Shown here piece after piece: positions 4,647 through 43,646 of a stretch of DNA of 64,000 nucleotides; the stretch's first letter is position 1; the number at the start of each line of letters is the position of its first letter. The stretch covers positions 144,582 to 208,581 of the forward strand of contig BPJG01000001.1 of NCBI GenBank assembly GCA_026004495.1, given 5' to 3'. The DNA is from Candidatus Parcubacteria bacterium. GTDB lineage: Bacteria > Patescibacteriota > Minisyncoccia > UBA6257 > HR35. A program made the position numbers and the translations under genes. Below the pieces are notes generated by a model. It was not told the origin of the DNA. It was given only the letters and a program-made list of their open reading frames with translations, and ran no database searches.

Positions 4647-5549
4647 TTAAATCTTTAAATATTTTGACATAGCTACAATAGAAGCGAAAATATTCATAAA
4701 TATTATAAAAACAATTATTAAGCCATTAATTATAAAAAAATTGTTAAAGAAAAAAAACTCTGGATTTAAAACAATAAGAATTTGTTTCCAAAAATCTCTT
4801 GTCATTATCAAAAAGAAAATAAATATTCCGTTAGCAATTAAATATCCCAAAAATGAAGTAATTAAATTAAAAATAATAAAGGGAATTCTAATGAAGTAAT
4901 TAGGTGTCCCTATTAAACGAAATACTTCTATTTCTTCTCGTTGAGAATATACAGTTAAAAGAGTCAAGTTTAAAATTAAGAAAAAAACAAAAACTAAAAT
5001 TAAAATTAAGAAAATAAAAATAATAAAATTAATTTGTTTTGATACCTTAATAAATCTTTCAATAATATTTTTATTTTCCGAATAAGTTAAAAAATCTATA
5101 GTTGCACGATAAGGGGAATTTTCTAAATATTTTGATATCTCATCATAAACTTCAGGTTTTTTAGCTTTTACGACTAAGTAATCTACCAGCGGATTAACAT
5201 TTAATTCTATCAAAGATTTAATAATAATAGGATTAGAAATATATTTTTTTTGAAAATCTTCAAATGCTGACTCTTTACTAACAAAAATAACTTCACTAAC
5301 ACCATTAAAGTTTTCTAAAATATTTTTCAATTTATTTATATCCTCTCTGTCAGTTCCTTCTCGAAAATAAATAGAAAAATCTAATTTTGTTTTCAAGAAA
5401 TTTATTATTTCATTAGAAAAATAAAATAAAGTAATATTTATAAAAAAAAGAAGCGAAGTTAAAAAAGAAACAAAAATAAGGACAAAAGTTATTATTTTCT
5501 TTCTCTTAAACAATTCCCAGCCCTCTTTTATTAATCTCGCAAAAATCAT
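4647..5549 (-). CDS. ftsX: cell division permease FtsX
   Basis: Topology of TM, extracellular domain, then 3 TM. Lies immediately downstream of ftsE. Confidence 0.7.
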   Translation of the reverse strand: MIFARLIKEGWELFKRKKIITFVLIFVSFLTSLLFFINITLFYFSNEIINFLKTKLDFSIYFREGTDREDINKLKNILENFNGVSEVIFVSKESAFEDFQKKYISNPIIIKSLIELNVNPLVDYLVVKAKKPEVYDEISKYLENSPYRATIDFLTYSENKNIIERFIKVSKQINFIIFIFLILILVFVFFLILNLTLLTVYSQREEIEVFRLIGTPNYFIRIPFIIFNLITSFLGYLIANGIFIFFLIMTRDFWKQILIVLNPEFFFFNNFFIINGLIIVFIIFMNIFASIVAMSKYLKI

Positions 5550-6233
5550 TTAAATTAAAGTATATTTTCCTGGATTTTCATCTTTAACTATTCGACCTTG
5601 ATGAAGAGTTATTACTCTTTTATTTAAATAATTAACAATATCCCTATTATGAGTAGTTAAAATTACAGTTATTCCTTGATTATTAATAATTTTTAATATC
5701 TCAATAATTTCAAATGAAGAAATAGGATCAAGGTTACCAGTTGGTTCATCTGCTAATAAGATCTCGGGATTAGTAGATAATGCCCTAGCTATACATAATT
5801 TTTGCTTTTCTCCTCCAGATAAAAATTTAGCTAAAATTTCTCTGTGATTCCATAAATCCATATTTATTAATACTTCTTCTACTTTCTTTTTTATTTCCTT
5901 ACTGTTGAATTTCATTATTTCCAAAGGTAGTTTTATATTATCATAAACTGTTCTTTCAAGTAATAATTTAAAATCTTGAAAAACAATGGCAATTTTTCTT
6001 CTTAACCTTAATATTTCATTTCTTCTAACTTTAGAATAATCTAAATTTTTATAAAATATATGACCTTCGGAAACATTTTCTTCTTTTCTAATCAATTTCA
6101 AAATAGTAGTTTTACCAGCCCCAGATCTACCAACAAGAATAACAAATTCTCCTGTTTTAATTTCAAAACTTATCTTATCTAAAGCTTTAATTTTTTCATA
6201 ATAAATTTTGCTTACGCTTTTAAAAACTAACAT
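5550..6233 (-). CDS. ftsE: cell division ATP-binding protein FtsE
   Basis: Walker A GRSGAGKTT, ABC signature LSGGEKQ, Walker B LLADEPTGNLD. Confidence 0.85.
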   Translation of the reverse strand: MLVFKSVSKIYYEKIKALDKISFEIKTGEFVILVGRSGAGKTTILKLIRKEENVSEGHIFYKNLDYSKVRRNEILRLRRKIAIVFQDFKLLLERTVYDNIKLPLEIMKFNSKEIKKKVEEVLINMDLWNHREILAKFLSGGEKQKLCIARALSTNPEILLADEPTGNLDPISSFEIIEILKIINNQGITVILTTHNRDIVNYLNKRVITLHQGRIVKDENPGKYTLI

Positions 6234-9960: not shown

Positions 9961-12513
9961 ATGGAAAAATTAATTGAGTTTTCTCAGAAAAGTGAAACTG
10001 AAATTTTAACCGAATTAAAAACTTCTCAAGAAGGATTAAATGAAAAAGAAGCTGAAAAAAGATTAAGAAAATTCGGTTTAAATAAAATTTCTTCTTTTAA
10101 GATTGATCTTTTAGAAATTATTAAAAGAAATTGTCTAAATTTTTTAAATATTTTTCTTTTTATTGCTGGTTTACTTTCCTTTTTAATTAAGGGTCCTGAA
10201 GTTGAAACCAATTTAATTTTTTTCTTTTTAATTCTTTCAATTTTAATTGCTATTTTTCAAGATTATCGAGTTAATAAATTAAGTGAAAAACTTTTGTCTT
10301 ATTTTAAGAATTATGCTTGGGTTAAAAGAGACGGTAAATGGCAGGAAATTGAAGCTGAATATTTAGTTCCTGGTGATTATGTTAAAGTTCAAGCTGGTTA
10401 TTTAATTCCAGCTGATATAAGAATTTTAAAAACAGAAGATGCTTTAGTTGATGAATCAATAATTACTGGTGAAAGTGAGCCAATATATAAAAACGCGGAA
10501 CTATCAGAACTTATACAGAACTTACAGAAAAATTCAGCTAGTTCAGCGTCAGTTCTGCGTAGTTCTGTTATTCCAGAAAATATTTCTCTTTTGGGTACAA
10601 CATTAATAAAAGGAGAAATTGAAGGAATTGTTTTGGTTACCGGTAAAGAAAGTTATTTTGGTTCAATTGCTAAAAAAACAATTGAAATAAGTAAAGAAAC
10701 TGCCTATGAAAAAATGATGGATCAATTCGCTAAAAATATTTCTTTCCTTGCTATTTTAATTGCTTTAATAATAATTTCTATTAATCTTTTAAAGCCAGGT
10801 TATCCAAATTTTCAAGAATTAATAATTTTTTCAATTGTTTTAGCTGTTGCCATTGTACCAGAATTTTTGCCAACAATGACTGTTTTAGCTTTAAGTTTGG
10901 CTGGAAATAGATTAGCTAAAAAAGGGTTAGTTATTAAAAGACTTTCATCAATCGAAGACTTAGGAGCAATTCAAATTTTATGTACTGATAAAACAGGGAC
11001 AATTACAACGAATGAATTAAGGTTAGAAAGAATTATAACACAAACTGGAAACGAACAACAAACAGACAAAGCTGAGATAATCAATATGAATACTATGACC
11101 GAACATTCCGCATTAAGTCCAGATAAGTCCATGTTTATAAAATATTTTTTAGCAGACTATTATTTCACTCAAGAAGCTACTCCTTATGACAAAGCAATTT
11201 TAGAAAAAATAAAAGAAATGTCTGATTACTCAAATTGGGAATTAATTGAAGATACCGATTTTGATCCAATCAAAAGAATAAGAAAAATTATTGTTAAAGT
11301 AAATGATGGAATTATCGAAATTGTTAAAGGTTCACCTGAAGAAATTGCTAAAATAACTCAAGATGATAATTGTTTAGAGATTTTTAAACGAGAAGATAAA
11401 AATGGTTTAAGAACATTAGCTTTAGCTGTAAATAATAAATTTTTAGGCATTGCTTCTTTTGTTGATCCTTTGAAAGAAAGCGCTTTTTCAGCTATTAATT
11501 TAGCTAAAAGATTAAATTTAGAAATAAAGATTTTAACAGGTGATTCATTAAATGTTGCCCGAGCTGTTGGTTTAAAACTTGGTTTAATTGAAGAAAATGA
11601 AAGGGTTGTCTTAGGAGAAGAAATAAGAAATTTAACTGGTGAAGAATTGAAAAAAATTGTCAAAGAAACAAAGATTTTTGCTCGCGTTTTACCTGAAGAT
11701 AAACTAAAAATTATCGAGGTTTTACAAAAAGAAAAATTTGTTGGTTTTTTAGGTGAAGGAATTAACGATGCTCCAGCTTTAAAAATAGTAAATGTTGCTT
11801 TAGCTGTTGATACTGCTACTGATATTGTTAAACAAGAAGCAGATATTATTTTAAAAGAAAAAGATTTGAAAACAATTATCGATGGTATTTATCAAGGCCG
11901 AAAAGTTTTAGAAAATATTGGTAAATATATTAAGCATACAATGAGTGATAATTTTGGCAATTTAACTTCAGTTGCTATTTTAACTTCAATTTTGCCTTTC
12001 GTACCAATGACACCACTTCAAGTTTTATTAACTAATTTTTTAACTGATATTCCTTTGATTGCTTTTGCTAATGATAATGTTGAAATTAAAGAAATTAAAA
12101 AGCCGGTAAAAATGTCAAGCTATCATTTAATTTTACTTCTTTTAGGTTTAGGTATTATTGCTGGAACTATTAATATTCTTGGTTATTTAATTGTCAAAAA
12201 TCAGTCAATTGAAATTATTCAAACTTATATCTTCTTTTTAACAACAATTACTGGTTTAATTGTTTCATTTCTTATCAGAACCAAAAATTGGTTCTTTTTA
12301 TCAAAACCAAGTAAATCTTTTATAATCGCTTCAATTATAGGGCTTATTTCAACTATAGTTTTTATATTTTTGCCGTCATTCAATAAAATTTTTGGATTTT
12401 CATCTTTAAATCAAAAATTAATTTTTACTTCATTAGTTTTAATCTTAGCCTTTATTTTAGGAACTGAAATTGTCAAAAAAGTCTTTTATAAAAAATTTCC
12501 AGATGTAATTTAA
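9961..12513 (+). CDS. cation-transporting P-type ATPase (P2/P3-like)
   Basis: TGES, DKTGTIT and GDGINDAP-like (GEGINDAPAL) motifs, PEFLP in TM4, about 10 TM segments. Confidence 0.85.
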   Translation: MEKLIEFSQKSETEILTELKTSQEGLNEKEAEKRLRKFGLNKISSFKIDLLEIIKRNCLNFLNIFLFIAGLLSFLIKGPEVETNLIFFFLILSILIAIFQDYRVNKLSEKLLSYFKNYAWVKRDGKWQEIEAEYLVPGDYVKVQAGYLIPADIRILKTEDALVDESIITGESEPIYKNAELSELIQNLQKNSASSASVLRSSVIPENISLLGTTLIKGEIEGIVLVTGKESYFGSIAKKTIEISKETAYEKMMDQFAKNISFLAILIALIIISINLLKPGYPNFQELIIFSIVLAVAIVPEFLPTMTVLALSLAGNRLAKKGLVIKRLSSIEDLGAIQILCTDKTGTITTNELRLERIITQTGNEQQTDKAEIINMNTMTEHSALSPDKSMFIKYFLADYYFTQEATPYDKAILEKIKEMSDYSNWELIEDTDFDPIKRIRKIIVKVNDGIIEIVKGSPEEIAKITQDDNCLEIFKREDKNGLRTLALAVNNKFLGIASFVDPLKESAFSAINLAKRLNLEIKILTGDSLNVARAVGLKLGLIEENERVVLGEEIRNLTGEELKKIVKETKIFARVLPEDKLKIIEVLQKEKFVGFLGEGINDAPALKIVNVALAVDTATDIVKQEADIILKEKDLKTIIDGIYQGRKVLENIGKYIKHTMSDNFGNLTSVAILTSILPFVPMTPLQVLLTNFLTDIPLIAFANDNVEIKEIKKPVKMSSYHLILLLLGLGIIAGTINILGYLIVKNQSIEIIQTYIFFLTTITGLIVSFLIRTKNWFFLSKPSKSFIIASIIGLISTIVFIFLPSFNKIFGFSSLNQKLIFTSLVLILAFILGTEIVKKVFYKKFPDVI

Positions 12514-15750: not shown

Positions 15751-16671
15751 TTATTCAATTTCTTCGACTACTATTTCATCTCCTAAAATATAGGCAATTA
15801 TAGCTTTGTTATCTTTATTGATGGTAAAATCAACTTCATCATAAGGCCCATATATTTTATCATTTATTTGAACATAGTATTTATCATCTTTTGTATAAGA
15901 CCATCCATATTTTGAGCTATCAGGAAAAAATATTTCACAATAAAAAATATCACAAGGATGGACATTATCATAAGGCCCATATATTTTATCATTTAGTTGA
16001 ACATACCATTTATCATCTTTTTTATACCTCAATCCATATTTTGAACTATCAGGAAAGAATATTTCACAATAAAAAATATCACAAGGATGGACATTATCAT
16101 AAGGCCCATATATTTTATCATTTAGTTGAAGATAGTATTTATTATCTTTTTCATAAGGTACATATACATATTTACCAGTTTCTTTTTCTAAGCCCACTCC
16201 TGTAATAGACTCTCTATCTAACAATAATTTATATTTTCTTACCCTTCCTTCTTCTTTCTTAGTTTCTTCTTTCTTAGTTTCCAATTTTATATCTTTACCT
16301 TTTATAGGAAATACTTTATTATCTTTTTTCCTTTTAAATGTTAATAATCTAAGTGTATCCTTATTTATTAATCTTCCTCTAAATTCTCCTGTATTATTAT
16401 TATTTTCATCATATTCTTTAAGGATAACAGTTTTAGTCTTAAGATTAATCTCTCCTTCTAATTTTAACCATTTTCCTACTTTATCATATTTATATCTTCA
16501 TTCTATTTTATTACTATTATCTTTTTGAGATAATTCAAGAGTAATAGGATAATTAGATATTTTTAGATTATAAGTATTAGTAATTTTATTAGTAGTTATT
16601 GTTTGAGCATTAGAAAATAAGGGAGAAAGAATAAGAGAGATAAGGATTAAAGAGATTATTAGTTTTTTCAT
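15751..16671 (-). pseudogene. lipoprotein/secreted repeat protein interrupted by in-frame TGA (signal-peptide part 16501..16671; repeat part 15751..16497)
   Basis: ATG at 16671 encodes MKKLIISLILISLILSPLFSNAQT... and stops at TGA 16500..16498. The same frame continues without any start codon into the listed ORF 15751..16284. That ORF contains three tandem ~39-aa repeats (DKxYVQLNDKIYGPYDNVHPCDIFYCEIFFPDSSKYG). Confidence 0.45.
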
Positions 16672-33109: not shown

Positions 33110-34924
33110 ATGAAAATAAAAGAAATAACAAAAAAAGTAATAATTATAATTTTGTTTTTAGCTATTATTTCATCAAATTTTATATTTAAAAAAAACTTAC
33201 TGGCAAATTTAATTTATTTTTATCCCCAAAATTGTTTAGGTAGTTTTATTAATCCTGAAAAAGCCCAAGGAAAACCTGAAGTTGATAGTCCAGATTTAAT
33301 AAATGAATCAAATTCTGCTGTTTATTTAGGTGGTTTTAAAGAAATTTATTGTGGAAATTTTCAAGGACCAGAGGCTAAAGGAGACATTAAAAAAATAACA
33401 TTACATTTTAATTGGATTATCACTAAAGAAAAAAATGGGGATTCGATAATTAAACCAACCTCAACAGAATCAAATATTTTAGAAAAAATAATTCCTTCAA
33501 AAACAATAGAGTTTGAATTTAATACTTCTCCAACTCCAACACCAGAAACAACCTCAACAATTGAATCAACATCAAGCCCAGAAATAAATTTTTTATTCAA
33601 CAAAGATCAACTTCTGCGTAGTTCTGCATTATCTTCTGTTAGTTCTGCGTCAGTTCTGCGTAGTTCTGCGTTTGATCTGCGTGAGTCTGCTTTAATAAAA
33701 TTTGTCTTTGCTCAAGAAACAACAACATCGCTTGAAACAACACCAGCTACAGAATCAAACTCAGAATCAACCACTATTAATACCCAAACCGAAACAGCAA
33801 CCCAAACTATAAATGAAACTCAACAATCTTTACCAGAAAATCAATCAGCAGAGCTATCAACAACTTCTACTTCAACAAATAATCAAATAGAAAATATCAC
33901 TTCTTCTACGACTACTCAAACATTAACCACCGCTTCACCAGCTGAAAATCAAAATGAAACTAATACAACGACAACAATTTTAGAAACAACCACAACACCA
34001 ATTTTAATACCTCCTAAAACTTTATTTGAAATTCACTATACCTTAGATGGTCAAAATTGGAATTATTTAGGTAATATAAATGAAAATAATTGGCAAAATA
34101 TTTCTTTTGAAATTCCAGTAAATAATTGGCTTGATATATCAAAAATTCAAATTAAGATAAATTCTTTACCAGAAACTGATTATTATCTTTATTTAGAATC
34201 AATGTGGTTTGAGATTGAATATGAAGAAAAAAACGAAGAAGATGAAGTTTTTGATATTTTAGGGAATTATAAGACAAATATCATTGTTTCTAAAGAGAGT
34301 TTCGAGCTTGATGAAATTCCTTACTTTGAATTTAAGATTTCTAAAAACAATAATGAAAATGAAATTGACATTTCTGAAATTAAATCAATTAATATAAAAG
34401 TTTTTAATTCCAATAAGGAGCTAATTTTCCAAACCAATAAGCTGGATTTTGATTATGATTCCAAAAATTTTTCTTTTAAATTAGATAATTTTCTAAAATT
34501 ATATCCAAATAGTTATAGATTAAAAATTTATTTAAATAAATATTTAGCCGGAGAATATGATTTCAATTGGGGAGGAAATATTGTTAAAGAAGAAAAAATT
34601 GACTCAGATAAAGAATTAATATTTATTGATTTTAATAATAAAAATCAAATATGGAATTTAACAAAAAGTGATATAAATAGTTTTGAAAAGATTTGGGAAG
34701 GCAAAGAATTTCCAAATTATAAAATTATTGATAGCTATCTAATTTTAAATTTTTCAGAAACAATTTTAGGCTATGACTTATTAAGTAAAACATCTTTTAC
34801 TTATACCTTTGAAAAATCAACTTCAACAATAATTAATATCAACAATAAAAAATATTCAATTTCACCAAATTTTGATTTTTTAGAAATTAATGAATCTCCA
34901 GAAAATGAAAATCAAGTTTTCTAA
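33110..34924 (+). CDS. secreted S/T-rich surface protein (604 aa)
   Basis: Signal peptide, a long T/S/N-rich linker that is probably glycosylated, and a C-terminal globular region. Overlaps the start of the giant gene by 35 nt. Confidence 0.55.
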   Translation: MKIKEITKKVIIIILFLAIISSNFIFKKNLLANLIYFYPQNCLGSFINPEKAQGKPEVDSPDLINESNSAVYLGGFKEIYCGNFQGPEAKGDIKKITLHFNWIITKEKNGDSIIKPTSTESNILEKIIPSKTIEFEFNTSPTPTPETTSTIESTSSPEINFLFNKDQLLRSSALSSVSSASVLRSSAFDLRESALIKFVFAQETTTSLETTPATESNSESTTINTQTETATQTINETQQSLPENQSAELSTTSTSTNNQIENITSSTTTQTLTTASPAENQNETNTTTTILETTTTPILIPPKTLFEIHYTLDGQNWNYLGNINENNWQNISFEIPVNNWLDISKIQIKINSLPETDYYLYLESMWFEIEYEEKNEEDEVFDILGNYKTNIIVSKESFELDEIPYFEFKISKNNNENEIDISEIKSINIKVFNSNKELIFQTNKLDFDYDSKNFSFKLDNFLKLYPNSYRLKIYLNKYLAGEYDFNWGGNIVKEEKIDSDKELIFIDFNNKNQIWNLTKSDINSFEKIWEGKEFPNYKIIDSYLILNFSETILGYDLLSKTSFTYTFEKSTSTIININNKKYSISPNFDFLEINESPENENQVF

Positions 34925-37900
34925 AAAAGCCTTTGTAAAGGTAAGCAACTTAATTTTAACTCTAATTCTATTAATTTCGCTAAATTTTTCTTATTTTATT
35001 TTAAGTAGTTTTAAATTATCAAAACAAAAATTTAAAGATAAACTTGTTAAAGAAGCGCAGGCAGTTTCTTTTTTCCATCCCACTAATGGCATCTTAGTTA
35101 CTGGTTCAGAAACAGCTTTAAGTAATTCTAATGTTGGCTCATGGCGAGGTTTATTAGGTAATGACTCAAATTATTGGCAAGTAGCCAGAGTTAATCCTGG
35201 AGGTTTAAATCTTTTAATTTATTTTGATGGAGTTGAACTTTATGGAGCTAATAAAATGATTATTACAATTGAAGATTCAAATATTATTACTGGTGATGCT
35301 TATATTCATCAAATTTGTGATTGGGTTGATTCAACTGGAGTTGATAATCCTGCTGATACTGATTGTACTGGTGGTGGTTGGCGAACATTAAATCCAAGAA
35401 AAACAACCTATACTAATATTGCTGATACTATTAGATCTTATGAAATATATAATGGTTATTTTTCAACCAGAGCAGCCTCTCCAGGAACGGTAATTAATAC
35501 TCCTTTATCTAATTTTATTGAACCAACAAATAAAAGAGTCTTAATAAGAGTGTATTCAACTGTCAATTCAACAACTAATTTAAGAATTGATTGGGCGCAA
35601 ATTGAAGTCGCTATTGATCCCTTTTATCAAAATGCTGGTATAACCTTAACTTCAGCTGGAGCAACAACTAACTTTATCTCTGACCTAATTGGTGCTCCTT
35701 ATCCTGGACCCAATAGTTCTGATAATGTTAAATTAACAATTCCTATGCCAGCAGCTAATCAACCAATTGATTTCTATTTCTCTTTTAAAAATGTCAAAAC
35801 TTATACTGGAATGAATACTATTTTAGTTGTTCCTGAAATTTGTGTTTCTAATACAGCTCTAACTTTTGATGTTTATTTGTGGAATTTTACTACTAATTCT
35901 TGGACTAAAAGACCAGGAACAGCTATTACTGGAACTGCTTGTACTACTGATACTGAATATGGTTTTGCTTTTAATCAATATACTATATCTGGTTTTAATT
36001 TAGATGATTATATTTCTAATGGTGAAATTAGAGTTAGGTTTTTAACCAATAATCCAGCTACTGTTTATAATATCCAACTTGATAGAATTTATATCTTTTT
36101 AGGTTCAGTTAATACTAATTCCTCAGCCTGTGAAATATCTTGGGGAACAGGAACAGCTTCAGATTGTGTTAATACCAGAGATATGAACGAAGGTTTAACT
36201 GCTAATCCAACAACTCTTACTTGGCAAACAGGAGCAGTAATTGAATATCCTGCTGGCTATCATCCCTTAGATAACGATGATGATATTACTAATGGTGAAT
36301 ATGCTTTTTCTTCTAATTTAGATTTTCCAGTAACTTTATCTTCTAATATGTCAGTAACTGCTATTCATTATGCTGGCAAATATAGATCAAATGCAACTTC
36401 AATTACCGTTAAACCATCAATTAGAGTTTATGGAGGTTTACCTGGTATTTATAGGAAAGCAGCAGGTTCTGGTTGGCGTGATACTCCCGGATCTGGTACT
36501 AATGCAGCTACTACTTATTCTTATTTTGATACCTTTAGAGTTCCTGAACTTCAAGTTGATGCACCAGATCATATTGATACAGTTAATAATCGAATGAATA
36601 TGAGATTAAGAACTTCAGCTTCAACTAATACTGCTGGTGGTGTAACTAGAGATTGGGATTTTGCAATGATGAGTATTAGATGGGTGGAAGAACCAAATAG
36701 AGTAACAATTACTAAAAATTTCCACCCCACTAACGGTATTTTAGTTACTGGTTCAGAAACAGCTTTAAGTAATTCTAATGTTGGCTCATGGCGAGGTTTA
36801 TTAGGTAATGACTCAAATTATTGGCAAGTAGCCAGAGTTAATCCTGGAGGTTTAAATCTTTTAATTTATTTTGATGGAGTTGAACTTTATGGAGCTAATA
36901 AAATGATTATTACAATTGAAGATTCAAATATTATTACTGGTGATGCTTATATTCATCAAATTTGTGATTGGGTTGATTCAACTGGAGTTGATAATCCTGC
37001 TGATACTGATTGTACTGGTGGTGGTTGGCGAACATTAAATCCAAGAAAAACAACCTATACTAATATTGCTGATACTATTAGATCTTATGAAATATATAAT
37101 GGTTATTTTTCAACCAGAGCAGCCTCTCCAGGAACGGTAATTAATACTCCTTTATCTAATTTTATTGAACCAACAAATAAAAGAGTCTTAATAAGAGTGT
37201 ATTCAACTGTCAATTCAACAACTAATTTAAGAATTGATTGGGCGCAAATTGAAGTCGCTATTGATCCCTTTTATCAAAATGCTGGTATAACCTTAACTTC
37301 AGCTGGAGCAACAACTAACTTTATCTCTGACCTAATTGGTGCTCCTTATCCTGGACCCAATAGTTCTGATAATGTTAAATTAACAATTCCTATGCCAGCA
37401 GCTAATCAACCAATTGATTTCTATTTCTCTTTTAAAAATGTCAAAACTTATACTGGAATGAATACTATTTTAGTTGTTCCTGAAATTTGTGTTTCTAATA
37501 CAGCTCTAACTTTTGATGTTTATTTGTGGAATTTTACTACTAATTCTTGGACTAAAAGACCAGGAACAGCTATTACTGGAACTGCTTGTACTACTGATAC
37601 TGAATATGGTTTTGCTTTTAATCAATATACTATATCTGGTTTTAATTTAGATGATTATATTTCTAATGGTGAAATTAGAGTTAGGTTTTTAACCAATAAT
37701 CCAGCTACTGTTTATAATATCCAACTTGATAGAATTTATATCTTTTTAGGTTCAGTTAATACTAATTCCTCAGCCTGTGAAATATCTTGGGGAACAGGAA
37801 CAGCTTCAGATTGTGTTAATACCAGAGATATGAACGAAGGTTTAACTGCTAATCCAACAACTCTTACTTGGCAAACAGGAGCAGTAATTGAATATCCTGC

Positions 37901-38828
37901 TGGCTATCATCCCTTAGATAACGATGATGATATTACTAATGGTGAATATGCTTTTTCTTCTAATTTAGATTTTCCAGTAACTTTATCTTCTAATATGTCA
38001 GTAACTGCTATTCATTATGCTGGCAAATATAGATCAAATGCAACTTCAATTACCGTTAAACCATCAATTAGAGTTTATGGAGGTTTACCTGGTATTTATA
38101 GGAAAGCAGCAGGTTCTGGTTGGCGTGATACTCCCGGATCTGATACTAATGCAGCTACTACTTATTCTTATTTTGATACCTTTAGAGTTCCTGAACTTCA
38201 AGTTGATGCACCAGATCATATTGATACAGTTAATAATCGAATGAATATGAGATTAAGAACTTCAGCTTCAACTAATACTGCTGGTGGTGTAACTAGAGAT
38301 TGGGATTTTGCAATGATGAGTATTAGATGGGTGGAAAGACCATTTGCACCACCAACAATTACTTGCTCTTTTTCAGCAACTTCAACTTCTTTTTCAAGTT
38401 TATCTCCTTCAGCTGTTTCTACTTCTTCACCTGATATAACAATTACCGTTACCTCTTCTGCTGGTTTTATAATTTCTGTTAATAATGCTGGAGATGGAAC
38501 TAACCCAGGTCTTTATAAATCAACTGCGCCAACATATTTAATTCCTTCACCCGATTCTTCATTTTCTGCAACTGCAACTTTATTTGCTGGCACAGATGGG
38601 TATGGTATTCAAGCAACAACGACTAATTCAAATATAAATATTAATGTAAGGTATAATGTTAGTGGATATACTGTTGGAGGTTTGACAACAACAACCATTA
38701 CTTTGGCAAGCTCTTCAGCTTCTGTTTCTTCGGCTCAAATTACTATTAAACACAAAGCATCTATTTCAGCCTTAGCACCAATAGGAAATTATCAGGATAC
38801 AATAACATATAGTTGCACAAGCCCGTAG
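34890..38828 (+). CDS. giant surface protein (1312 aa) with internal 549-aa tandem duplication and C-terminal SCPU/CsuA-B-like beta-sandwich domain
   Basis: N-terminal TM/signal. Two near-identical 549-aa units. The C-terminal ~160 aa resemble the stand-alone protein at 39426..40085 and pilin-like SCPU domains (see findings). Confidence 0.7.
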   Translation: MNLQKMKIKFSKKAFVKVSNLILTLILLISLNFSYFILSSFKLSKQKFKDKLVKEAQAVSFFHPTNGILVTGSETALSNSNVGSWRGLLGNDSNYWQVARVNPGGLNLLIYFDGVELYGANKMIITIEDSNIITGDAYIHQICDWVDSTGVDNPADTDCTGGGWRTLNPRKTTYTNIADTIRSYEIYNGYFSTRAASPGTVINTPLSNFIEPTNKRVLIRVYSTVNSTTNLRIDWAQIEVAIDPFYQNAGITLTSAGATTNFISDLIGAPYPGPNSSDNVKLTIPMPAANQPIDFYFSFKNVKTYTGMNTILVVPEICVSNTALTFDVYLWNFTTNSWTKRPGTAITGTACTTDTEYGFAFNQYTISGFNLDDYISNGEIRVRFLTNNPATVYNIQLDRIYIFLGSVNTNSSACEISWGTGTASDCVNTRDMNEGLTANPTTLTWQTGAVIEYPAGYHPLDNDDDITNGEYAFSSNLDFPVTLSSNMSVTAIHYAGKYRSNATSITVKPSIRVYGGLPGIYRKAAGSGWRDTPGSGTNAATTYSYFDTFRVPELQVDAPDHIDTVNNRMNMRLRTSASTNTAGGVTRDWDFAMMSIRWVEEPNRVTITKNFHPTNGILVTGSETALSNSNVGSWRGLLGNDSNYWQVARVNPGGLNLLIYFDGVELYGANKMIITIEDSNIITGDAYIHQICDWVDSTGVDNPADTDCTGGGWRTLNPRKTTYTNIADTIRSYEIYNGYFSTRAASPGTVINTPLSNFIEPTNKRVLIRVYSTVNSTTNLRIDWAQIEVAIDPFYQNAGITLTSAGATTNFISDLIGAPYPGPNSSDNVKLTIPMPAANQPIDFYFSFKNVKTYTGMNTILVVPEICVSNTALTFDVYLWNFTTNSWTKRPGTAITGTACTTDTEYGFAFNQYTISGFNLDDYISNGEIRVRFLTNNPATVYNIQLDRIYIFLGSVNTNSSACEISWGTGTASDCVNTRDMNEGLTANPTTLTWQTGAVIEYPAGYHPLDNDDDITNGEYAFSSNLDFPVTLSSNMSVTAIHYAGKYRSNATSITVKPSIRVYGGLPGIYRKAAGSGWRDTPGSDTNAATTYSYFDTFRVPELQVDAPDHIDTVNNRMNMRLRTSASTNTAGGVTRDWDFAMMSIRWVERPFAPPTITCSFSATSTSFSSLSPSAVSTSSPDITITVTSSAGFIISVNNAGDGTNPGLYKSTAPTYLIPSPDSSFSATATLFAGTDGYGIQATTTNSNININVRYNVSGYTVGGLTTTTITLASSSASVSSAQITIKHKASISALAPIGNYQDTITYSCTSP
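35075..38368. repeat. direct tandem duplication, 2 x 1647 bp, near-identical, inside the giant gene
   Basis: The landmark GTTACTGGTTCAGAAACAGC occurs at 35097 and 36744, an offset of 1647. The translated copies differ at only a few residues, e.g. SGTNAAT vs SDTNAAT. Confidence 0.9.
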
Positions 38829-38880
38829 TTAGTAGCTAGTATCTAGTAGCTAGTAAGTAGTAGCTAAAATCTAGTAGTTA
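38826..38880. repeat. TAG/CTAG-rich repeat R1 (TAGTAGCTAGTATCTAGTAGCTAGTAAGTAGTAGCT)
   Basis: Lies directly after the stop of the giant gene. Related copies are at 39255..39333 (inverted) and 40083..40130 (direct). Confidence 0.7.
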
Positions 38881-38886
38881 AATAAA

Positions 38887-39135
38887 ATGAAAACAAAATC
38901 TTTTAAGGAATTAATAGTTTGGCAAAGAGCAAAAGAATTAACAATAGAAGCTTATAAATTAACATCAAAATTTCCAAAATCAGAACTTTTTGGCTTAACA
39001 AGTCAAATGAGAAGATCGGCAATTTCTATTTCTTCAAATATTGCTGAAAGTTATAATCGATTTCATTCAAAAGAGAAAAAACAATTTTTAGCTGTTGCTT
39101 TTAGCTCCGGAGCAGAATTAGAAAGTCAGATTTAA
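38887..39135 (+). pseudogene. four-helix-bundle protein of the 23S rRNA intervening-sequence / Avd-like family, truncated by in-frame TAA
   Basis: Family pattern WQRAKEL...FPK.E.FGLTSQMRRSAISI.SNIAE...R....E...FL..A.SS..ELE.Q stops at ELESQI-TAA. The same frame continues IAKSL..., which is where family members continue (LIIAK.LGY...). Confidence 0.6.
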
Positions 39136-39254
39136 ATTGCTAAATCATTAATTTCCAGATTTAGATTATTCAAAAGTAGAAACTCTTATTATGGATATTA
39201 TGAAAATGTTAAATAAAAATTATTAATAAAAAATAAAAAAAATCAAAAAACAAC

Positions 39255-39333
39255 CTACTATTAGATTCTATTTACTAATTTCTAAATTCTATCCTGTATC
39301 TACTAGATCCTACTTACTAGCTTCTAGATTCTG
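39255..39333. repeat. TAG-rich repeat R2, inverted relative to R1/R3 (..CTACTAGATCCTACTTACTAGCTTCTAGATTCTG)
   Basis: Its reverse complement contains GCTAGTAAGTAG and CTAGTAG, as in R1. Confidence 0.65.
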
Positions 39334-39425
39334 TTCAATATTGTGGGAAAAATTTTTTGATGAAATATGATATAATTAAAAAATGAGTTTTCCTGTAGTG
39401 AAACTATAGTTTTTGCTACGGGGGA

Positions 39426-40085
39426 TTGGTCGAAATTAATAAAAAAAATAAAATGAAAAAAGTAAATACATTTCAAAGCTTGATCATTTTGATAAGCATA
39501 TTTTTAGCTATTTATTTTATTTCTGAGTTGTTTATTATACCATCGTCTATTTTAAAGGCTCAAACTAATGTTACTGTTTCAGCAACTGTGACAACAAGTG
39601 TTACTTGTAATTTTTCAACAACAACTACTAATTTTGGTACTATCGATACAAGTGCCGTCTATACTTCTTTGCCTAATGTAACAGCAACTGTTTCTTGTAA
39701 TCCAGCTGCAGGATGTAAGGTAGAAATTAACGATCAAGGATCTGGATCTCAGCCAGGTTTATGGAATTCAACAGCTTCTCATTTAATTCCTTCACCAGAT
39801 TCTGCATTCTCAGCAACTGCAAATTTAGTGGCTGGAACAGAAGGTTATGGAATTCAAGCAGCAACAACTTCAGCTGGATCTGGCGCAACTCTTTCTTTAA
39901 ATTCGAGATATATCCAAACTGGAAATACCGTTGGAGGATTAACAACAACAACTATTCAATTAGCCTCTTCGACATCACCAATATCAAACAGAGAAATTGT
40001 TGTTACTCATAAAGCAGCTGTTTCAAGTTTAACTCCAGCAGGTAATTATCAAGATACAATAACTTATAGTTGTTCATCGAATTAG
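39426..40085 (+). CDS. secreted SCPU/CsuA-B-like beta-sandwich protein (pilin-like), paralog of the giant protein C-terminus
   Basis: Signal peptide. NVTVSATVTTSVTCNF...NFGTID (cf. SCPU TFQVSATVxASCxV...FGTYD) and C-terminal AGNYQDTITYSCSS (cf. AGSYSDTVTVTVTY). Aligns with giant-protein residues ~1150-1312 (GL..STA..LIPSPDS.FSATA.L.AGT.GYGIQA.TT...GGLTTTTI.LASS...KA..S.L.P.GNYQDTITYSC). Confidence 0.55.
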   Translation: MVEINKKNKMKKVNTFQSLIILISIFLAIYFISELFIIPSSILKAQTNVTVSATVTTSVTCNFSTTTTNFGTIDTSAVYTSLPNVTATVSCNPAAGCKVEINDQGSGSQPGLWNSTASHLIPSPDSAFSATANLVAGTEGYGIQAATTSAGSGATLSLNSRYIQTGNTVGGLTTTTIQLASSTSPISNREIVVTHKAAVSSLTPAGNYQDTITYSCSSN

Positions 40086-40130
40086 TAGCTAATAGTTAGA
40101 AGCTAGTATCTAGAAGCTAGTATCTAGTAA
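40083..40130. repeat. TAG-rich repeat R3 (TAGTAGCTAATAGTTAGAAGCTAGTATCTAGAAGCTAGTATCTAGTAA)
   Basis: Same orientation and motif family as R1. Lies immediately after the stop of the SCPU-like gene. Confidence 0.65.
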
Positions 40131-40160
40131 TTAAAAACAATTTTTATAAAATTTAAAACA

Positions 40161-41075
40161 ATGAAAAATTATAAAAATAATTCAATAATTTACTTTCTTT
40201 TAGTTTCTATTTTCTATTTACTAGCTACTAATTTATTGGCTACTAATTTTGTTTTTGCCTTAACTGTTGGGCCAGCGAAATTAGAATTTATAACCGATCC
40301 AGGCCAAACTTTAGAATTTAGTTTATTTGTGAGAAACGATAGCGATTACGATAATAAATATCAAATTATTGTTGAAGGATTTACTGAAGAAGGAGGCGAA
40401 AGAAAATATATTGAAAATCCACCAGAAGTAACTTGGGTTGAAACACCAAAAGATATTTTTCTCAAAGCCAAAGAAGATAAAAATGTTCCAATAAAAATTA
40501 ATGTTCCTAAAGATGCTCCACCAGGAGGTCATTTTTTAGTTTTATGGGTAAGCACAAAGCCTGAAGGAGGTCAAGTAGCAATTGTCTCAAGAGTTGGCTC
40601 TTTAGTTTTTATTAATGTTTCAGGAAATGCAATTTATAAAGCTTATATCAGTGAATTAAAAGCTCCAAAATTTGCTTGGAATTTTCCAGTAAAATTTTCT
40701 TATGTAATTAAAAATGAAGGTAACACTTATATCACACCAAAAGGAGATATTGAAATTAAAAATATTTTTGGCAGATTAATTGCTGATTTACCAATAAATC
40801 CAAGAGAGCTTCAAGTTTTACCTAATACTTCAAAAAATTTTGAGCAAGAATGGAAAGCAAATTTTGCTCTTGGTATTTATAAAGCTATTTTTAATTTAGA
40901 ATATGCTAATTCAAGAGATTCTTTAACTCATTGGCTTATTTTTATTGATCTCAAAGCCCTGATAATAATTTTACTTATTCTTATTTTTGCAATCTTCTTC
41001 TTACCAAGATTGATTAAAAAATATAATGAATGGATAATTAAAAAGTATACGCAAAATAAAAATATAAATGAATGA
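40161..41075 (+). CDS. secreted beta-sandwich (Ig/CARDB/DUF916-like) protein with C-terminal TM anchor
   Basis: Signal peptide, about 250 aa predicted all-beta (TVGPAKLEFITDPGQTLEFSLFVRNDS...), C-terminal hydrophobic helix plus a basic tail. The family assignment is tentative. Confidence 0.45.
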   Translation: MKNYKNNSIIYFLLVSIFYLLATNLLATNFVFALTVGPAKLEFITDPGQTLEFSLFVRNDSDYDNKYQIIVEGFTEEGGERKYIENPPEVTWVETPKDIFLKAKEDKNVPIKINVPKDAPPGGHFLVLWVSTKPEGGQVAIVSRVGSLVFINVSGNAIYKAYISELKAPKFAWNFPVKFSYVIKNEGNTYITPKGDIEIKNIFGRLIADLPINPRELQVLPNTSKNFEQEWKANFALGIYKAIFNLEYANSRDSLTHWLIFIDLKALIIILLILIFAIFFLPRLIKKYNEWIIKKYTQNKNINE

Positions 41076-42124
41076 ATTTAAGAATAATTTCAATAATTTT
41101 TTTAATATTTGTTTCTATATTTATATTATTTTATTCTTTTACTTATCTTAAATCTGCTTCGATAAATATTAAAGCTTTTGTGCCTGGTATTTGTGGAAAT
41201 AATTTTAAAGAACCAGGAGAAGAATGTGATGGCCCTGATTTAGGAGGTCAAAGTTGTGTTTCTTTAGGTTATTCAGGCGGAACCTTATCTTGTAATTCTA
41301 ATTGTACTTTTAATACTTCTCAATGTACCATTTCTCCGCCAAGTAGTGGAGGAGGTGGGGGAGGCAGTGGATCGTACATTCCCTCTTATGGAACAGTTAT
41401 TCTTTCAGGAAGGGCTCAACCGAATAGTGATGTTACTTTAATGTCTGATGGTCAAATTAAAGCTGTTATCAAGGTTGATGCTGATGGAAAATTTAGATTT
41501 ACTATTTCAAATTTAACTCCAGGAAATTACATATTTACCTTATATGCTGAAGATATTGAAGGAAGAAGAACAAGTTTGCATTCAATTCCAACAGTAGTTA
41601 CTGCAGGACTGACAATTGAAATAGGCAGTATTTTTCTTTCACCAACAATTGACATTGATAAAACTCAAGTTAGGCGAGGAGAGATCTTAAGAATTTTTGG
41701 CCAAACAGCTCCTGAATCTAATGTTTTAATTGTTGTTTCTTCCGAAAAAGAGTTATATTTTCAAACTCAAGCAGAAAAAGATGGAAGTTATTTATATGCT
41801 TTCAATACTATTGACTTAGATTATGGCCAACATTTAACAAAATCAAGATCAATTTTAGCTAATCAATTAGTTAGTCCTTTTTCAAGATCTTTAAACTTTC
41901 AAGTCTCGACAAGTTCAATAGCTAAAAAACCAACAAAATGTCCATTAAAAGGAGATTTAAATAATGATTGTCGAGTAAATTTAATTGATTTTTCAATTGC
42001 CGCTTATTGGTATAAAAGAAAATTAAGTCCAAGTTTTACTAAAATTGAAAAAGAAAATTTAAATGGAGATGGAAAGGTCGATTTAGTCGATTTTAGTATT
42101 ATGGCTTATTGGTGGACGGGGTAA
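41072..42124 (+). CDS. dockerin-domain protein with N-terminal anchor, Cys-rich module, Gly linker and Ig-like domains
   Basis: The C-terminus has two canonical dockerin Ca-binding repeats: GDLNNDCRVNLIDFSIAAYWYKRK and NLNGDGKVDLVDFSIMAYWW. The N-terminal region carries 8 Cys (CGNNFKEPGEECDG...SCVS...SCNSNCTF..SQC) followed by GGGGGGSG. Confidence 0.7.
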   Translation: MNLRIISIIFLIFVSIFILFYSFTYLKSASINIKAFVPGICGNNFKEPGEECDGPDLGGQSCVSLGYSGGTLSCNSNCTFNTSQCTISPPSSGGGGGGSGSYIPSYGTVILSGRAQPNSDVTLMSDGQIKAVIKVDADGKFRFTISNLTPGNYIFTLYAEDIEGRRTSLHSIPTVVTAGLTIEIGSIFLSPTIDIDKTQVRRGEILRIFGQTAPESNVLIVVSSEKELYFQTQAEKDGSYLYAFNTIDLDYGQHLTKSRSILANQLVSPFSRSLNFQVSTSSIAKKPTKCPLKGDLNNDCRVNLIDFSIAAYWYKRKLSPSFTKIEKENLNGDGKVDLVDFSIMAYWWTG

Positions 42125-42127
42125 TAG

Positions 42128-42224
42128 CCACACGAATGCCAACGAATCAAATAAGCACACGAATGGCAACGAATTATATAATATTTGTGTGCAATTCGTG
42201 TTAATACACGAATGGCGATGAATT
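42128..42224. repeat. repeat family 2, left copy: tandem CACACGAATGGCAACGAAT units plus an internal inverted copy
   Basis: CACACGAATGCCAACGAAT, CACACGAATGGCAACGAAT, and GTGTGCAATTCGTGTTAATACACGAATGGCGATGAAT. Confidence 0.7.
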
Positions 42225-42275
42225 AAAATATAGAATTAGTAACAATTTGTGTAATTATGTACGAATAATAAAAAA

Positions 42276-42641
42276 ATGAACGTAAATATTAATAAAAACC
42301 AGAGTAGAAATATTTTGTATAAAGAGCTTTCTTGCAAGCTACAAGATATCTTTTTTAAAATAAGAAATGAGTTGGGTAGTGGTCATAAAGAATCAATTTA
42401 TCAAAATGCCCTGGCTAAAGAATTAGAAAAGAATAAAATAAACTTTCAAAGAGAATATCCGGTGAAAATATATTCAAAAGAAGGTTATTTCTTAGGATTA
42501 TATAAACCTGATTTTGTAATAGATAATAAGATAATAATAGAAGTTAAAGCGAAAAGTTTTTTGTCAAAGCAAGAAAGGATAATTATTTATGATTATTTAA
42601 AAAATAGCGAGTTTGAAGTCGCTTATATTGTAAATTTTTAA
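42276..42641 (+). CDS. GxxExxY protein (PD-(D/E)XK nuclease-like small protein)
   Basis: The motif GHKESIY (G-x-x-E-x-x-Y) is followed by L(G/Y)KPDFVIDNKIIIEVKA, a D...E.K core. Size 121 aa. Confidence 0.65.
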   Translation: MNVNINKNQSRNILYKELSCKLQDIFFKIRNELGSGHKESIYQNALAKELEKNKINFQREYPVKIYSKEGYFLGLYKPDFVIDNKIIIEVKAKSFLSKQERIIIYDYLKNSEFEVAYIVNF

Positions 42642-42773: not shown

Positions 42774-43646
42774 ATGTCTAGGATTTATATACAAAGTGAT
42801 AAAAAAATGAATACTGATAAAATTATTATACCTATCTATCTTGACACTGAGGGAGAATCAATTAATGCTTTTGAAGTTAAAATTAAAATCTCTGACAATT
42901 TAATTTTTAGAGATTATTTAGAGAAAGATTCAATTATTAGTTATTGGATTGAAAGACCCCATGTAGTAGAGCGGAGCTCACTACCTGGCAAACCCAATGT
43001 AGTAGAAAAAAGTTCACCACAAGGTTCTACTACTGAGAACTTGTCTCGTAGTGAACCACAAGGTTCTACTACCGAGATAAATTTTTCTGGAATTACTCCG
43101 GGAGGTTATATTGGTAAAAAAGCTTTATTAGTAAATTTAATTTTTGAAGCTAAACAAAGTGGTTCAGCTTTCATTGAAATCTTGCCTTCGTCCAATGTTT
43201 TGTTAAATGATAGCTTAGGAACAAAAGCAAAATTAATAACTGAGAAATATAGTTTTATTTTAAACCGAACTCAGGAGAAGAAAATAATAATTCAAGATAA
43301 TTACCCACCCGAGCCATTTAAGGTTTATCTTCAAAAAGATAAAGAAATTTTTAATAATAAATATTATCTTGTTTTTTATGCCCAAGACAAACAATCAGGA
43401 ATATCTTATTATGAAGTTAAAGAAGGTGATTATGATTTTGAAAAAGCTTCATCACCATATCTTTTAAAAGATCAATCTTTAAGAAGTTATGTCTATATTA
43501 AAGCAGTTGATCGAGCAGGAAATGAACGAATTGAGATTTTTAAACCTCGAAAATTATTTTTGTTAGAGGAAATTTTATCCTTGATTTTTTTTATTGTTAT
43601 AATATTCTTAATATTTCTAATTTTCAATAAAAAATTTAAGAAATAA
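42774..43646 (+). CDS. membrane-anchored cohesin-like domain protein (second copy) with in-frame repeat insertion
   Basis: The N-terminal beta domain resembles the 30238..31677 protein (IIIPIYLDTEGESINAFEVKIKISDNLIF...EINFSGITPGGYIGKKALLVNLIFEAK...AFIEIL). There is a C-terminal Ig-like region plus a TM anchor. An inserted segment RPHVVERSSLPGKPNVVEKSSPQGSTTENLSRSEPQGSTTE is encoded by short direct and inverted repeats. Confidence 0.5.
   Translation: MSRIYIQSDKKMNTDKIIIPIYLDTEGESINAFEVKIKISDNLIFRDYLEKDSIISYWIERPHVVERSSLPGKPNVVEKSSPQGSTTENLSRSEPQGSTTEINFSGITPGGYIGKKALLVNLIFEAKQSGSAFIEILPSSNVLLNDSLGTKAKLITEKYSFILNRTQEKKIIIQDNYPPEPFKVYLQKDKEIFNNKYYLVFYAQDKQSGISYYEVKEGDYDFEKASSPYLLKDQSLRSYVYIKAVDRAGNERIEIFKPRKLFLLEEILSLIFFIVIIFLIFLIFNKKFKK

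Follow-up and report, generated by a model that had tools for sequence, protein, structure and literature searches.

Tandem-heptamer hairpins in a Parcubacteria pilus operon: probable filled and empty cassettes of the rRNA intervening-sequence type

A pilus operon in the genome of a Candidatus Parcubacteria bacterium carries four arrays of a TAG-rich repeat, R1 to R4, which probably are hairpin cassettes of the type known as intervening sequences (IVSs) in rRNA genes, placed here in operon spacers, one of them filled with a decayed gene and the other empty. The operon lies on contig BPJG01000001.1 (GenBank assembly GCA_026004495.1), of which we analysed positions 144,582 to 208,581 of the forward strand, a stretch of 64,000 nucleotides hereafter called the window. 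IVSs of the S23p type are inserted in helix 25, 45 or 9 of the 23S rRNA gene; they and their S23p open reading frame (ORF) have been known for about 30 years and, to our knowledge, have no accepted origin, mobility mechanism or function. An earlier reading of the window, made from its letters before any database search (the sequence-only reading), had drawn attention to three of the four repeats.

Results

Four heptamer arrays in the window

R1 to R4 are built from 7-nt units, TAGTAGC or TAGTATC (Tandem Repeats Finder (TRF), period 7/14), in a window whose base composition is about 25% G+C. A scan of the whole window for period-7 arrays that do not consist of A and T only returned exactly these four. 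The motif CTAGTAGCTAGTA, searched over the 64 kb with up to two mismatches, had 12 matches against 0.8 expected, a number reached by none of 100 shuffles, and every match falls in R1, R2, R3 or R4. The sequence-only reading had placed R1 and R3 in one orientation and R2 in the other, each beginning at a stop codon; the three copies and their orientations are present as described, and R1 and R3 each begin with the TAG stop of the upstream gene. Its statement that the repeats occur nowhere else in the window accounted for all the motif matches outside R4, a fourth copy located within the N-terminal coding part of ORF 40161-41075. The arrays and the genes around them are the following.

34890-38828, forward strand: adhesin-like gene, 1312 aa; its TAG stop is the first R1 unit, and in its C-terminal part it is paralogous to the pilin
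38826-38880, forward strand: R1, proposed 5′ stem arm, about 7.6 copies of the heptamer TAGTAGC/TAGTATC, closing all three frames with stops
38887-39226, forward strand: cassette cargo, four-helix-bundle gene (PF05635 / TIGR02436), pseudogene
39255-39333, inverted: R2, proposed 3′ stem arm, CTA-type heptamers complementary to R1
39453-40085, forward strand: pilin-like gene with weak CPR_Pam_pilin_C and SCPU matches; its TAG stop lies inside the start of R3
40080-40130, forward strand: R3, 5′ arm of the putative empty hairpin
40161-41075, forward strand: 304-aa gene, with its ATG (40161) in the 68-nt R3/R4 loop
40191-40233, inverted to R3 and 68 nt downstream of it: R4, 3′ arm of the putative empty hairpin

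The forward arms bear a TAG every 7 nt, which closes all three frames. R4, an inverted arm, is open in its translated frame, and R2 lies outside coding sequence. The predicted duplex of R1 with R2 reached -39.9 kcal/mol (z -7.6) and that of R3 with R4 -43.6 kcal/mol (z -10.1), for arms that are only 72-86% complementary; cross-pairing among all four is strong because they share the 7-nt unit. Arms folded singly were weak (R1 z -2.2, R2 z -0.6), and a search of Rfam found no family covering the repeats. We regard R1 to R4 as probably the paired arms of two long hairpins made of tandem 7-nt units.

The R1/R2 cassette encloses a decayed PF05635 gene

The sequence-only reading had called the gene between R1 and R2 Avd-like, and the inverted pair does bracket this gene as a unit. 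It had also spoken of inverted-repeat brackets around a gene for an alternative copy of the adhesin C-terminal domain; what R1 and R2 enclose is a four-helix-bundle pseudogene and no adhesin-domain cassette. ORF 38887-39135 belongs to a family named '23S rRNA intervening-sequence protein' (PF05635, E = 4e-27; TIGR02436, E = 8e-25), and a search of solved structures with the four-helix-bundle protein matched PDB 2GSC (Xanthomonas XCC0516). The profile match stops at position 76 of 106, interrupted by a nonsense codon and a frameshift. Aligned with intact relatives, the gene has TAA in place of GAA at 39133-39135 and one inserted nucleotide near 39151; beyond this insertion the C-terminus is encoded in another frame, up to 39226. 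R1 (period 7, 7.6 copies) ends 6 nt before the cargo ATG, the span from R1 to R2 is about 510 nt, and in the fold of the whole cassette R1 pairs with R2 across the gene.

The adhesin gene upstream contains a near-perfect tandem duplication (35094-36689 and 36741-38336, period 1647 nt, one mismatch) that doubles about 549 aa and reflects either a recent event or an error of assembly.

Anatomy shared with rRNA intervening sequences

A tblastn search of plasmids returned 24 records with PF05635 relatives, mostly cyanobacterial. On the Azospirillum lipoferum plasmid AZO_p2 (13798-15276, locus L122) the PF05635 ORF lies inside the large subunit (LSU) rRNA (Rfam RF02541, 846 bits) between inverted GGACAGA/GGACGGA heptamer arrays (z 19), and these arrays form the closing stem of the minimum-free-energy (MFE) fold (z -8.6). 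The Coxiella IVS has heptamer repeats in the stem that RNase III cuts, directly upstream of where the ORF starts, in copy numbers that differ between strains (PMC4990558). The stems of rRNA IVSs are RNase III substrates according to Burgin 1990 and Ralph & McClelland 1993, as these works are reported in PMC4990558, where RNase III processing is also shown for the Coxiella IVS.

Since it matches the layout of both L122 and the Coxiella IVS, the R1-gene-R2 unit has the anatomy of an S23p-type IVS, and on the evidence of sequence this anatomy is identical with that of a true rRNA IVS. Its cargo is of the same family as that of the 23S rRNA IVSs of Leptospira, Coxiella, Brucella and Azospirillum (L122), both kinds of element are closed by a stem of terminal inverted arms, and in both the heptamers stand directly upstream of the ORF start, vary in copy number between relatives and accompany an ORF that tends to decay. 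They are also alike in size: the Coxiella IVS measures 428-444 nt, the span from R1 to R2 about 510 nt. Unlike the rRNA IVSs, however, the element of the window sits in a pilus-operon spacer between protein genes, its 5′ arm starts at a stop codon, and in relatives its 3′ arm codes for the N-terminus of the protein that follows. As the window holds no rRNA and the neighbours of the cassette are protein-coding, we call the R1/R2 unit IVS-like and not an IVS.

Inverted arrays surround PF05635 genes across phyla

A scan with the intact homologue from the related genome HR35, restricted to one genome per species, yielded 68 loci, mostly Patescibacteria; the remainder were labelled Desulfobaccales, Chthoniobacterales, Terriglobia, Rickettsiales, Fervidobacterium, Brocadiaceae, Chryseobacterium, Phycisphaerae and, in one case, a Methanomethylophilaceae archaeon. 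For each locus the 200-nt upstream flank was aligned to the reverse complement of the downstream flank, and arms were called at z >= 4.5 over shuffles. Inverted flanking arms were found in 56 of the 65 testable loci, compared with 11 of 215 other ORFs of the same loci, several of which adjoin a cassette. One suggestion of the sequence-only reading was that the repeats may be specific to this locus; it is not supported, as the same architecture surrounds PF05635 genes in many phyla. Arm units are of about 7 nt, sometimes 8, and differ in sequence by lineage: TAGAAAA, TAGAAAG and TAGAATC in the Candidate Phyla Radiation (CPR); GTTTTCT, TCGGGAT, GTTCGAG, CAGTAAG, AGACTTT, TGACATT and others elsewhere. 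Period-7 arrays numbered 60 within 150 nt of the gene (about 20 kb) against 33 in the other 347 kb or so, an enrichment of roughly 30-fold beside the PF05635 gene. Array pairs that hold an ORF of four-helix-bundle size (113-128 aa) have loops of 343-451 nt, and among the matches listed the strand of the ORF relative to the 5′ arm was constant in every filled pair; 'empty' pairs with loops of 16-81 nt also occur.

The genes next to the cargo are mostly co-oriented with it (58/63 upstream, 56/60 downstream). A median of 48 nt separates the upstream stop from the cargo start, a gap that the arm takes up. Of 38 CPR loci, 30 have TAG as the upstream stop, compared with 70 of 271 background ORFs, and the array begins with that TAG. 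Rfam placed none of 20 PF05635 loci on short contigs in rRNA. Because the same layout surrounds PF05635 genes in dozens of unrelated bacteria, this type of cassette is general and apparently undescribed. The arrays probably break short-read assemblies, as many homologues lie on contigs below 2 kb.

Some of these loci have neighbours of particular kinds. On a plasmid of Picosynechococcus PCC 7003 (L123) the four-helix-bundle gene stands between cas10 and cmr3 with heptamer arrays beside it, and on one of Pseudanabaena galeata (L124) between cas6 and cas4, with a heptamer unit repeated about 15 times. The domain '23S_rRNA_IVP' is listed among CRISPR-associated domains (PMC10910872), and cas-adjacent cassettes may account for this reported association. 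In a Latescibacterota metagenome-assembled genome (L068, 2566-3191) a PF05635 gene lies between two tRNA genes, another co-transcribed and processed context.

A second cassette with a GxxExxY gene

About 2 kb downstream, between ORF 41072-42124 and ORF 42774-43646, a second cassette has the layout of R1-gene-R2 with a different repeat. Its parts are as follows.

42125-42232, forward strand: 5′ arm of ACACGAATGNC-type repeats with a period of about 9-11 nt, directly after the TAA stop of ORF 41072-42124
42276-42641, forward strand: cargo, GxxExxY / PD-(D/E)XK_3 protein, 121 aa
42714-42765, forward strand: 3′ arm of ATTCGTGTGCCATTCGTGT-type repeats, inverted copies of the ACACGAATGNC-type ones, ending 9 nt before the ATG of the next ORF

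The cargo matched its families with E = 3e-24 and 9e-25 (TIGR04256 / PF13366), and its translation holds GHKESIY and an intact PD...EVK motif. With the gene between them, these arms pair in the whole fold (z -4.7), and their predicted duplex reached -53 kcal/mol (z -9.9). Look-ups of the exact GxxExxY and 304-aa proteins of the window gave no match, and a search of solved structures with the GxxExxY protein gave nothing meaningful. In metagenomes, flanking inverted arms at z >= 5 were present in 26 of 42 testable GxxExxY loci, with a period of about 9-10 nt and a recurring core ACAC(G/A)(G/A)AT or ACGAAT; the upstream neighbour was co-oriented in 31 of 33. With a 7-nt period beside PF05635 and a period of about 10 nt plus a conserved core beside GxxExxY, the type of arm thus tracks the type of cargo. 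Viral contigs and GenBank phages contained no relatives of either cargo, and hence offer no phage link.

The cassettes differ in presence and position among close relatives

The pilus operon is syntenic in HR35 (L001) and in GCA_026004515 (L003), where the host proteins are 79-89% identical to those of the window for the pilin, the 304-aa protein (p304) and a 350-aa protein (p350), and 62% for a 290-aa protein (p290). Both relatives have intact PF05635 genes, 87% and 75% identical respectively, that lie one spacer upstream, before the adhesin gene. These cassettes have TAG-type arms from the upstream stop codon, and their 3′ arm, to which R2 is homologous, codes for the N-terminus of the adhesin. 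Both align end to end with the window cassette, arms included, and the orientation of the cassette is the same in all three genomes. The adhesin-to-pilin spacer contains no arm in GCA_026004515, a lone R1-like array in HR35, and R1, pseudogene and R2 in the window; the promoter-like and 5′ untranslated region (UTR) sequences at its downstream end are conserved. From these differences in cassette position and spacer state, we conclude that the unit moved or was rearranged within the operon, for which recombination between similar arrays is a plausible route. No target-site duplication beyond the TAG was visible.

Upstream of the pilin gene, 39368-39424 includes an extended -10-like motif, TGATATAAT, and a small hairpin, CCTGTAG...CTACGGGG. 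HR35 keeps both, and GCA_026004515 keeps the motif and the 3′ half of the hairpin. This segment may be the promoter and 5′ UTR of the pilin gene itself; the generic promoter scan did not flag it.

The spacer that holds the GxxExxY cassette in the window, between the genes of p350 and p290, is also used elsewhere. A PF05635 gene lies between homologues of these two proteins in at least 13 other CPR pilus operons, and three further loci (L072, L074, L076) have a GxxExxY gene there. Across these lineages the PF05635 proteins are 66-75% identical, and the flanking proteins only 22-52%. In HR35 the same spacer has a GC-rich, structured non-coding insert of about 220 nt (L001, 16590-16815; fold z -5.6) with no match in Rfam.

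The hairpin R3/R4 encloses a start codon

R3/R4 spans the stop codon of the pilin gene, the start codon of the next gene, in the loop, and the signal-peptide coding region of that gene. The whole hairpin has a predicted energy of -48 kcal/mol (z -6.6), and R4 is translated as part of the signal-peptide region of the 304-aa protein (...FLLVSIFYLLATNLLATN...). The hairpin is retained in all three genomes, with both arms longer in the window (+14 nt and +22 nt). For hairpins at start codons, namely R3/R4, those at the adhesin N-termini of the relatives and those at the pilin-like genes of locus L027, translational coupling or gating is plausible.

At L027, empty TAG-heptamer hairpins (4777-4877 and 5865-5959) surround the start codons of type-IV-pilin-like genes, with a leader peptide encoded by the 3′ arm (..LDSRF..(K/R)GFT..).

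Three further repeats of the window were recorded. A hairpin of about 75 nt at 10495-10568 (RNA fold z -4.6), with arms of ACAGAACT / AGTTCTGCGT-type repeats of about 10-11 nt, lies in frame within a P-type ATPase-like ORF (9961-12510), where its translation is ...ELSELIQNLQKNSASSASVLRSS...; it has the look of an empty hairpin element that a coding region tolerates. At 33612-33694, within ORF 33110-34924, about six tandem copies of TTCTGCGTAG are read as LLRSSALSSVSSASVLRSS. This unit is the same as the 3′ side of the ATPase hairpin, had no 5′ partner that we could see, and resembles GTCTGCGTCAGTCTGCGT at the end of the HR35 insert (L001, about 16790). A 129-nt tandem repeat occupies 15838-16156 (2.5 copies, 91% matches, TRF).

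Discussion

We favour the reading in which R1 and R2 would be the stem of an IVS-type cassette, composed of a 5′ heptamer arm, an 'S23p' gene and a complementary 3′ arm in the adhesin-to-pilin spacer, and R3/R4 an empty hairpin of the same repeat family. The cassette would be transcribed as part of the host operon, its arms would pair in the RNA to form a duplex of about 30 bp or more, and RNase III would cut the stem as it does in rRNA IVSs. Such a cut would split the polycistronic transcript and separate its cistrons, which would make an insertion in the spacer tolerable, and either recombination between similar arrays or an activity encoded by the cargo may bring the cassette to new sites. 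The sequences themselves show the anatomy, its generality for PF05635 genes and the parallel form with GxxExxY genes, its identity with a true rRNA IVS, the co-orientation of neighbours, the start at a stop codon and the differences in presence and position among relatives. Co-transcription, folding and RNase III cutting we infer from the IVS-like anatomy, from the shared orientation and from a spacer too short for a promoter of its own, and RNase III is accordingly a presumed processing enzyme of these cassettes.

Several observations weigh against it. The fold of the whole R1/R2 cassette was only modestly better than that of shuffles (z -2.1). The arms had no RNA-specific signature, with 68 mismatches of the G·U type against 59 of the A·C type (p = 0.48), transversions were common in them, and the lengths of the two arms were uncorrelated across loci (rho 0.12); the mismatch and arm-length results agree no less well with arms generated at the DNA level or with neutral slippage. 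The cargo protein may recognise the arms, because a plain RNase III substrate needs no cargo-specific arm period. Finally, cutting the R3/R4 stem would destroy the downstream mRNA, since R4 sits in a coding region, and the real role of this hairpin may be regulation or translational coupling.

Among the other explanations, the one we rate highest, while still rather unlikely, is a mobile cassette acting at the DNA level. In this view the arms, as inverted arrays at its ends, would consist of sites that the cargo protein binds (the PF05635 pentamer or the GxxExxY PD-(D/E)XK nuclease), and this protein would drive homing or transposition into spacers just after stop codons. The RNA hairpin would then be a by-product, and the two readings are compatible. 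It would explain why arm type follows cargo, 7-nt units with PF05635 and units of about 10 nt with the conserved ACACGAAT/ACACAGAT core with GxxExxY, and it agrees with the retention of the PD...EVK catalytic motif in the GxxExxY protein, the differences in presence and position between close relatives, the occurrence of either cargo in the same operon spacer across genomes and the lack of G·U bias in the arms. The heptamers, however, diverge widely between lineages while the protein stays 65-75% identical, no target-site duplication extends beyond the TAG, phage and viral collections contained no relatives, and the arms persist here although the cargo is a pseudogene; co-orientation above 90% is also unexpected for an insertion blind to orientation, unless selection filters the outcome. 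We think it somewhat less likely again that the hairpins are RNA regulators other than RNase III sites, coupling or gating translation through a stem melted by the terminating ribosome, a start codon in the loop and a 3′ arm encoding a cleavable leader peptide. R3/R4 and its orthologues in HR35 and GCA_026004515 do enclose a start codon with the 3′ arm as signal peptide, the empty hairpins of L027 do likewise for type-IV-pilin-like genes, and arms begin at a stop codon; but the PF05635 or GxxExxY gene in the loop and the homologues in rRNA IVSs would be left unexplained, R2 is non-coding and the arms have no covariation signature. A neutral origin, as functionless heptamer simple-sequence repeats arising by polymerase slippage and correction of quasi-palindromes, seems improbable to us. 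Heptamer repeats are over-represented in bacteria, with inverted pairs of no known function in Xanthomonas (PMC4692102), their copy number varies between relatives and between Coxiella strains, and arm lengths are uncorrelated. Such an origin is difficult to reconcile with a roughly 30-fold concentration of arrays beside one gene family, with their fixed orientation and position relative to the stop codon, with an arrangement conserved across phyla and with the retention of R3/R4 in three genomes.

To the remaining explanations, most of them raised by the sequence-only reading, we give very little credence. That reading had likened the locus to a shufflon, an invertible cassette or a gene-conversion system varying the adhesin C-terminal domain. 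Inverted repeats do surround a gene between two paralogous pilin-like domains, and the locus is rearranged between relatives, with a 1647-bp tandem duplication in the adhesin gene; shufflons, invertible switches and diversity-generating retroelements (DGRs) with Avd share with it inverted repeats near surface-protein genes and, distantly, a four-helix bundle of the Avd type. Yet the arms of the window are imperfect (72-86% complementary) and enclose a PF05635 pseudogene, a single cargo orientation occurs among the matches listed, more than 90% of neighbours are co-oriented, the pilin and the C-terminus of the adhesin are paralogues that have diverged in an ordinary way, to 55% identity, and the architecture is generic to PF05635 genes, those embedded in rRNA included. 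There was no recombinase among the genes of the locus, and no recombinase or reverse transcriptase among the matches listed for the 46 window ORFs (25 of 59 Pfam families). Intrinsic or bidirectional terminators, or a DGR remnant (Avd, template repeat (TR) and variable repeat (VR)), appear just as remote, even though the repeats directly follow stop codons, the cargo has weak bAvd/Avd matches and the adhesin C-terminus resembles the pilin. 'Stop walls' was an apt description of the 5′ arms, which have stops in three frames. The terminator half of that proposal failed: R1 to R4 showed no GC-rich stem followed by a T-run, R1 and R2 fold weakly when taken singly, the sole terminator-like site in 38600-40400 is on the minus strand within the pilin gene, and promoter and terminator scans gave nothing above chance. 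As to a DGR, the Avd/bAvd scores of the cargo reached 20 bits for cut-offs of 40 and 80, and the 158 mismatches between adhesin and pilin are spread over A (59), G (35), T (37) and C (27) without the adenine-specific TR/VR pattern; together with the lack of a reverse transcriptase among the families listed, this leaves a DGR unsupported.

Arrays of heptamers are known from several bacteria, as GGGAATC convergent pairs in Xanthomonas, GGGGATT in Nostoc, heptanucleotide tandem repeats in Calothrix PCC 7601 and TAACTGA in Beggiatoaceae (PMC4692102, PMC4679880). They resemble the arrays of the window in their 7-nt units, their location between co-oriented genes, their frequent occurrence as inverted pairs capable of forming stem-loops and their variable length; they differ in that those papers report no link to PF05635 or GxxExxY genes, whereas in the window the arrays go together with a cargo gene and with the anatomy of an IVS. 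The Coxiella IVS heptamers (PMC4990558) and intergenic heptamer arrays of no known function (PMC4692102, PMC4679880) were already published. Full-text searches of the open-access literature and bioRxiv did not turn up any account of PF05635 or GxxExxY genes that lie outside rRNA and are enclosed by periodic inverted arrays specific to the cargo, nor of hot-spots for these genes in CPR pilus operons.

Other small elements offer functional parallels. The Correia/NEMIS elements of Neisseria are small, have inverted ends and lie in transcribed spacers, where their RNA hairpins are reportedly cut by RNase III with effects on mRNA levels; they are functional analogues of the empty R3/R4 hairpin. Unlike the arms of the window, their ends are unique sequence with no short-period arrays, they carry no cargo gene and they have no sequence relation to them. 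Rickettsia palindromic elements are tolerated in frame within coding regions, as are R4, the 3′ arms at the adhesin N-termini of HR35 and GCA_026004515 and the ATPase hairpin at 10495-10568, but they belong to another host lineage, are unrelated in sequence and have not been described with periodic arms.

More tentatively, and with less than even confidence, we suggest that PF05635 and GxxExxY genes mark out one class of cassettes borne on hairpins, widespread and so far unrecognised, which may be called 'operonic IVSs'. Each gene family would have its own kind of arrays, recognised by its protein. Insertion would take place right after stop codons of transcribed spacers, in the helices of rRNA and, in frame, even within coding sequence, and hot-spot spacers of CPR pilus and cyanobacterial cas operons would be used repeatedly. 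The presence of the same element, heptamer arms with a PF05635 gene, in operon spacers across phyla links the puzzle of the IVSs with that of the heptamer arrays. A sister cassette around a PD-(D/E)XK nuclease, filled and empty sites and cargo-specific arms provide testable units, and neighbouring genes obtain stop codons and leader-peptide codons from the arrays. If the class is real, the rRNA IVS in its classical form would be a special case within it, and the heptamer arrays of bacteria would be its empty sites or footprints.

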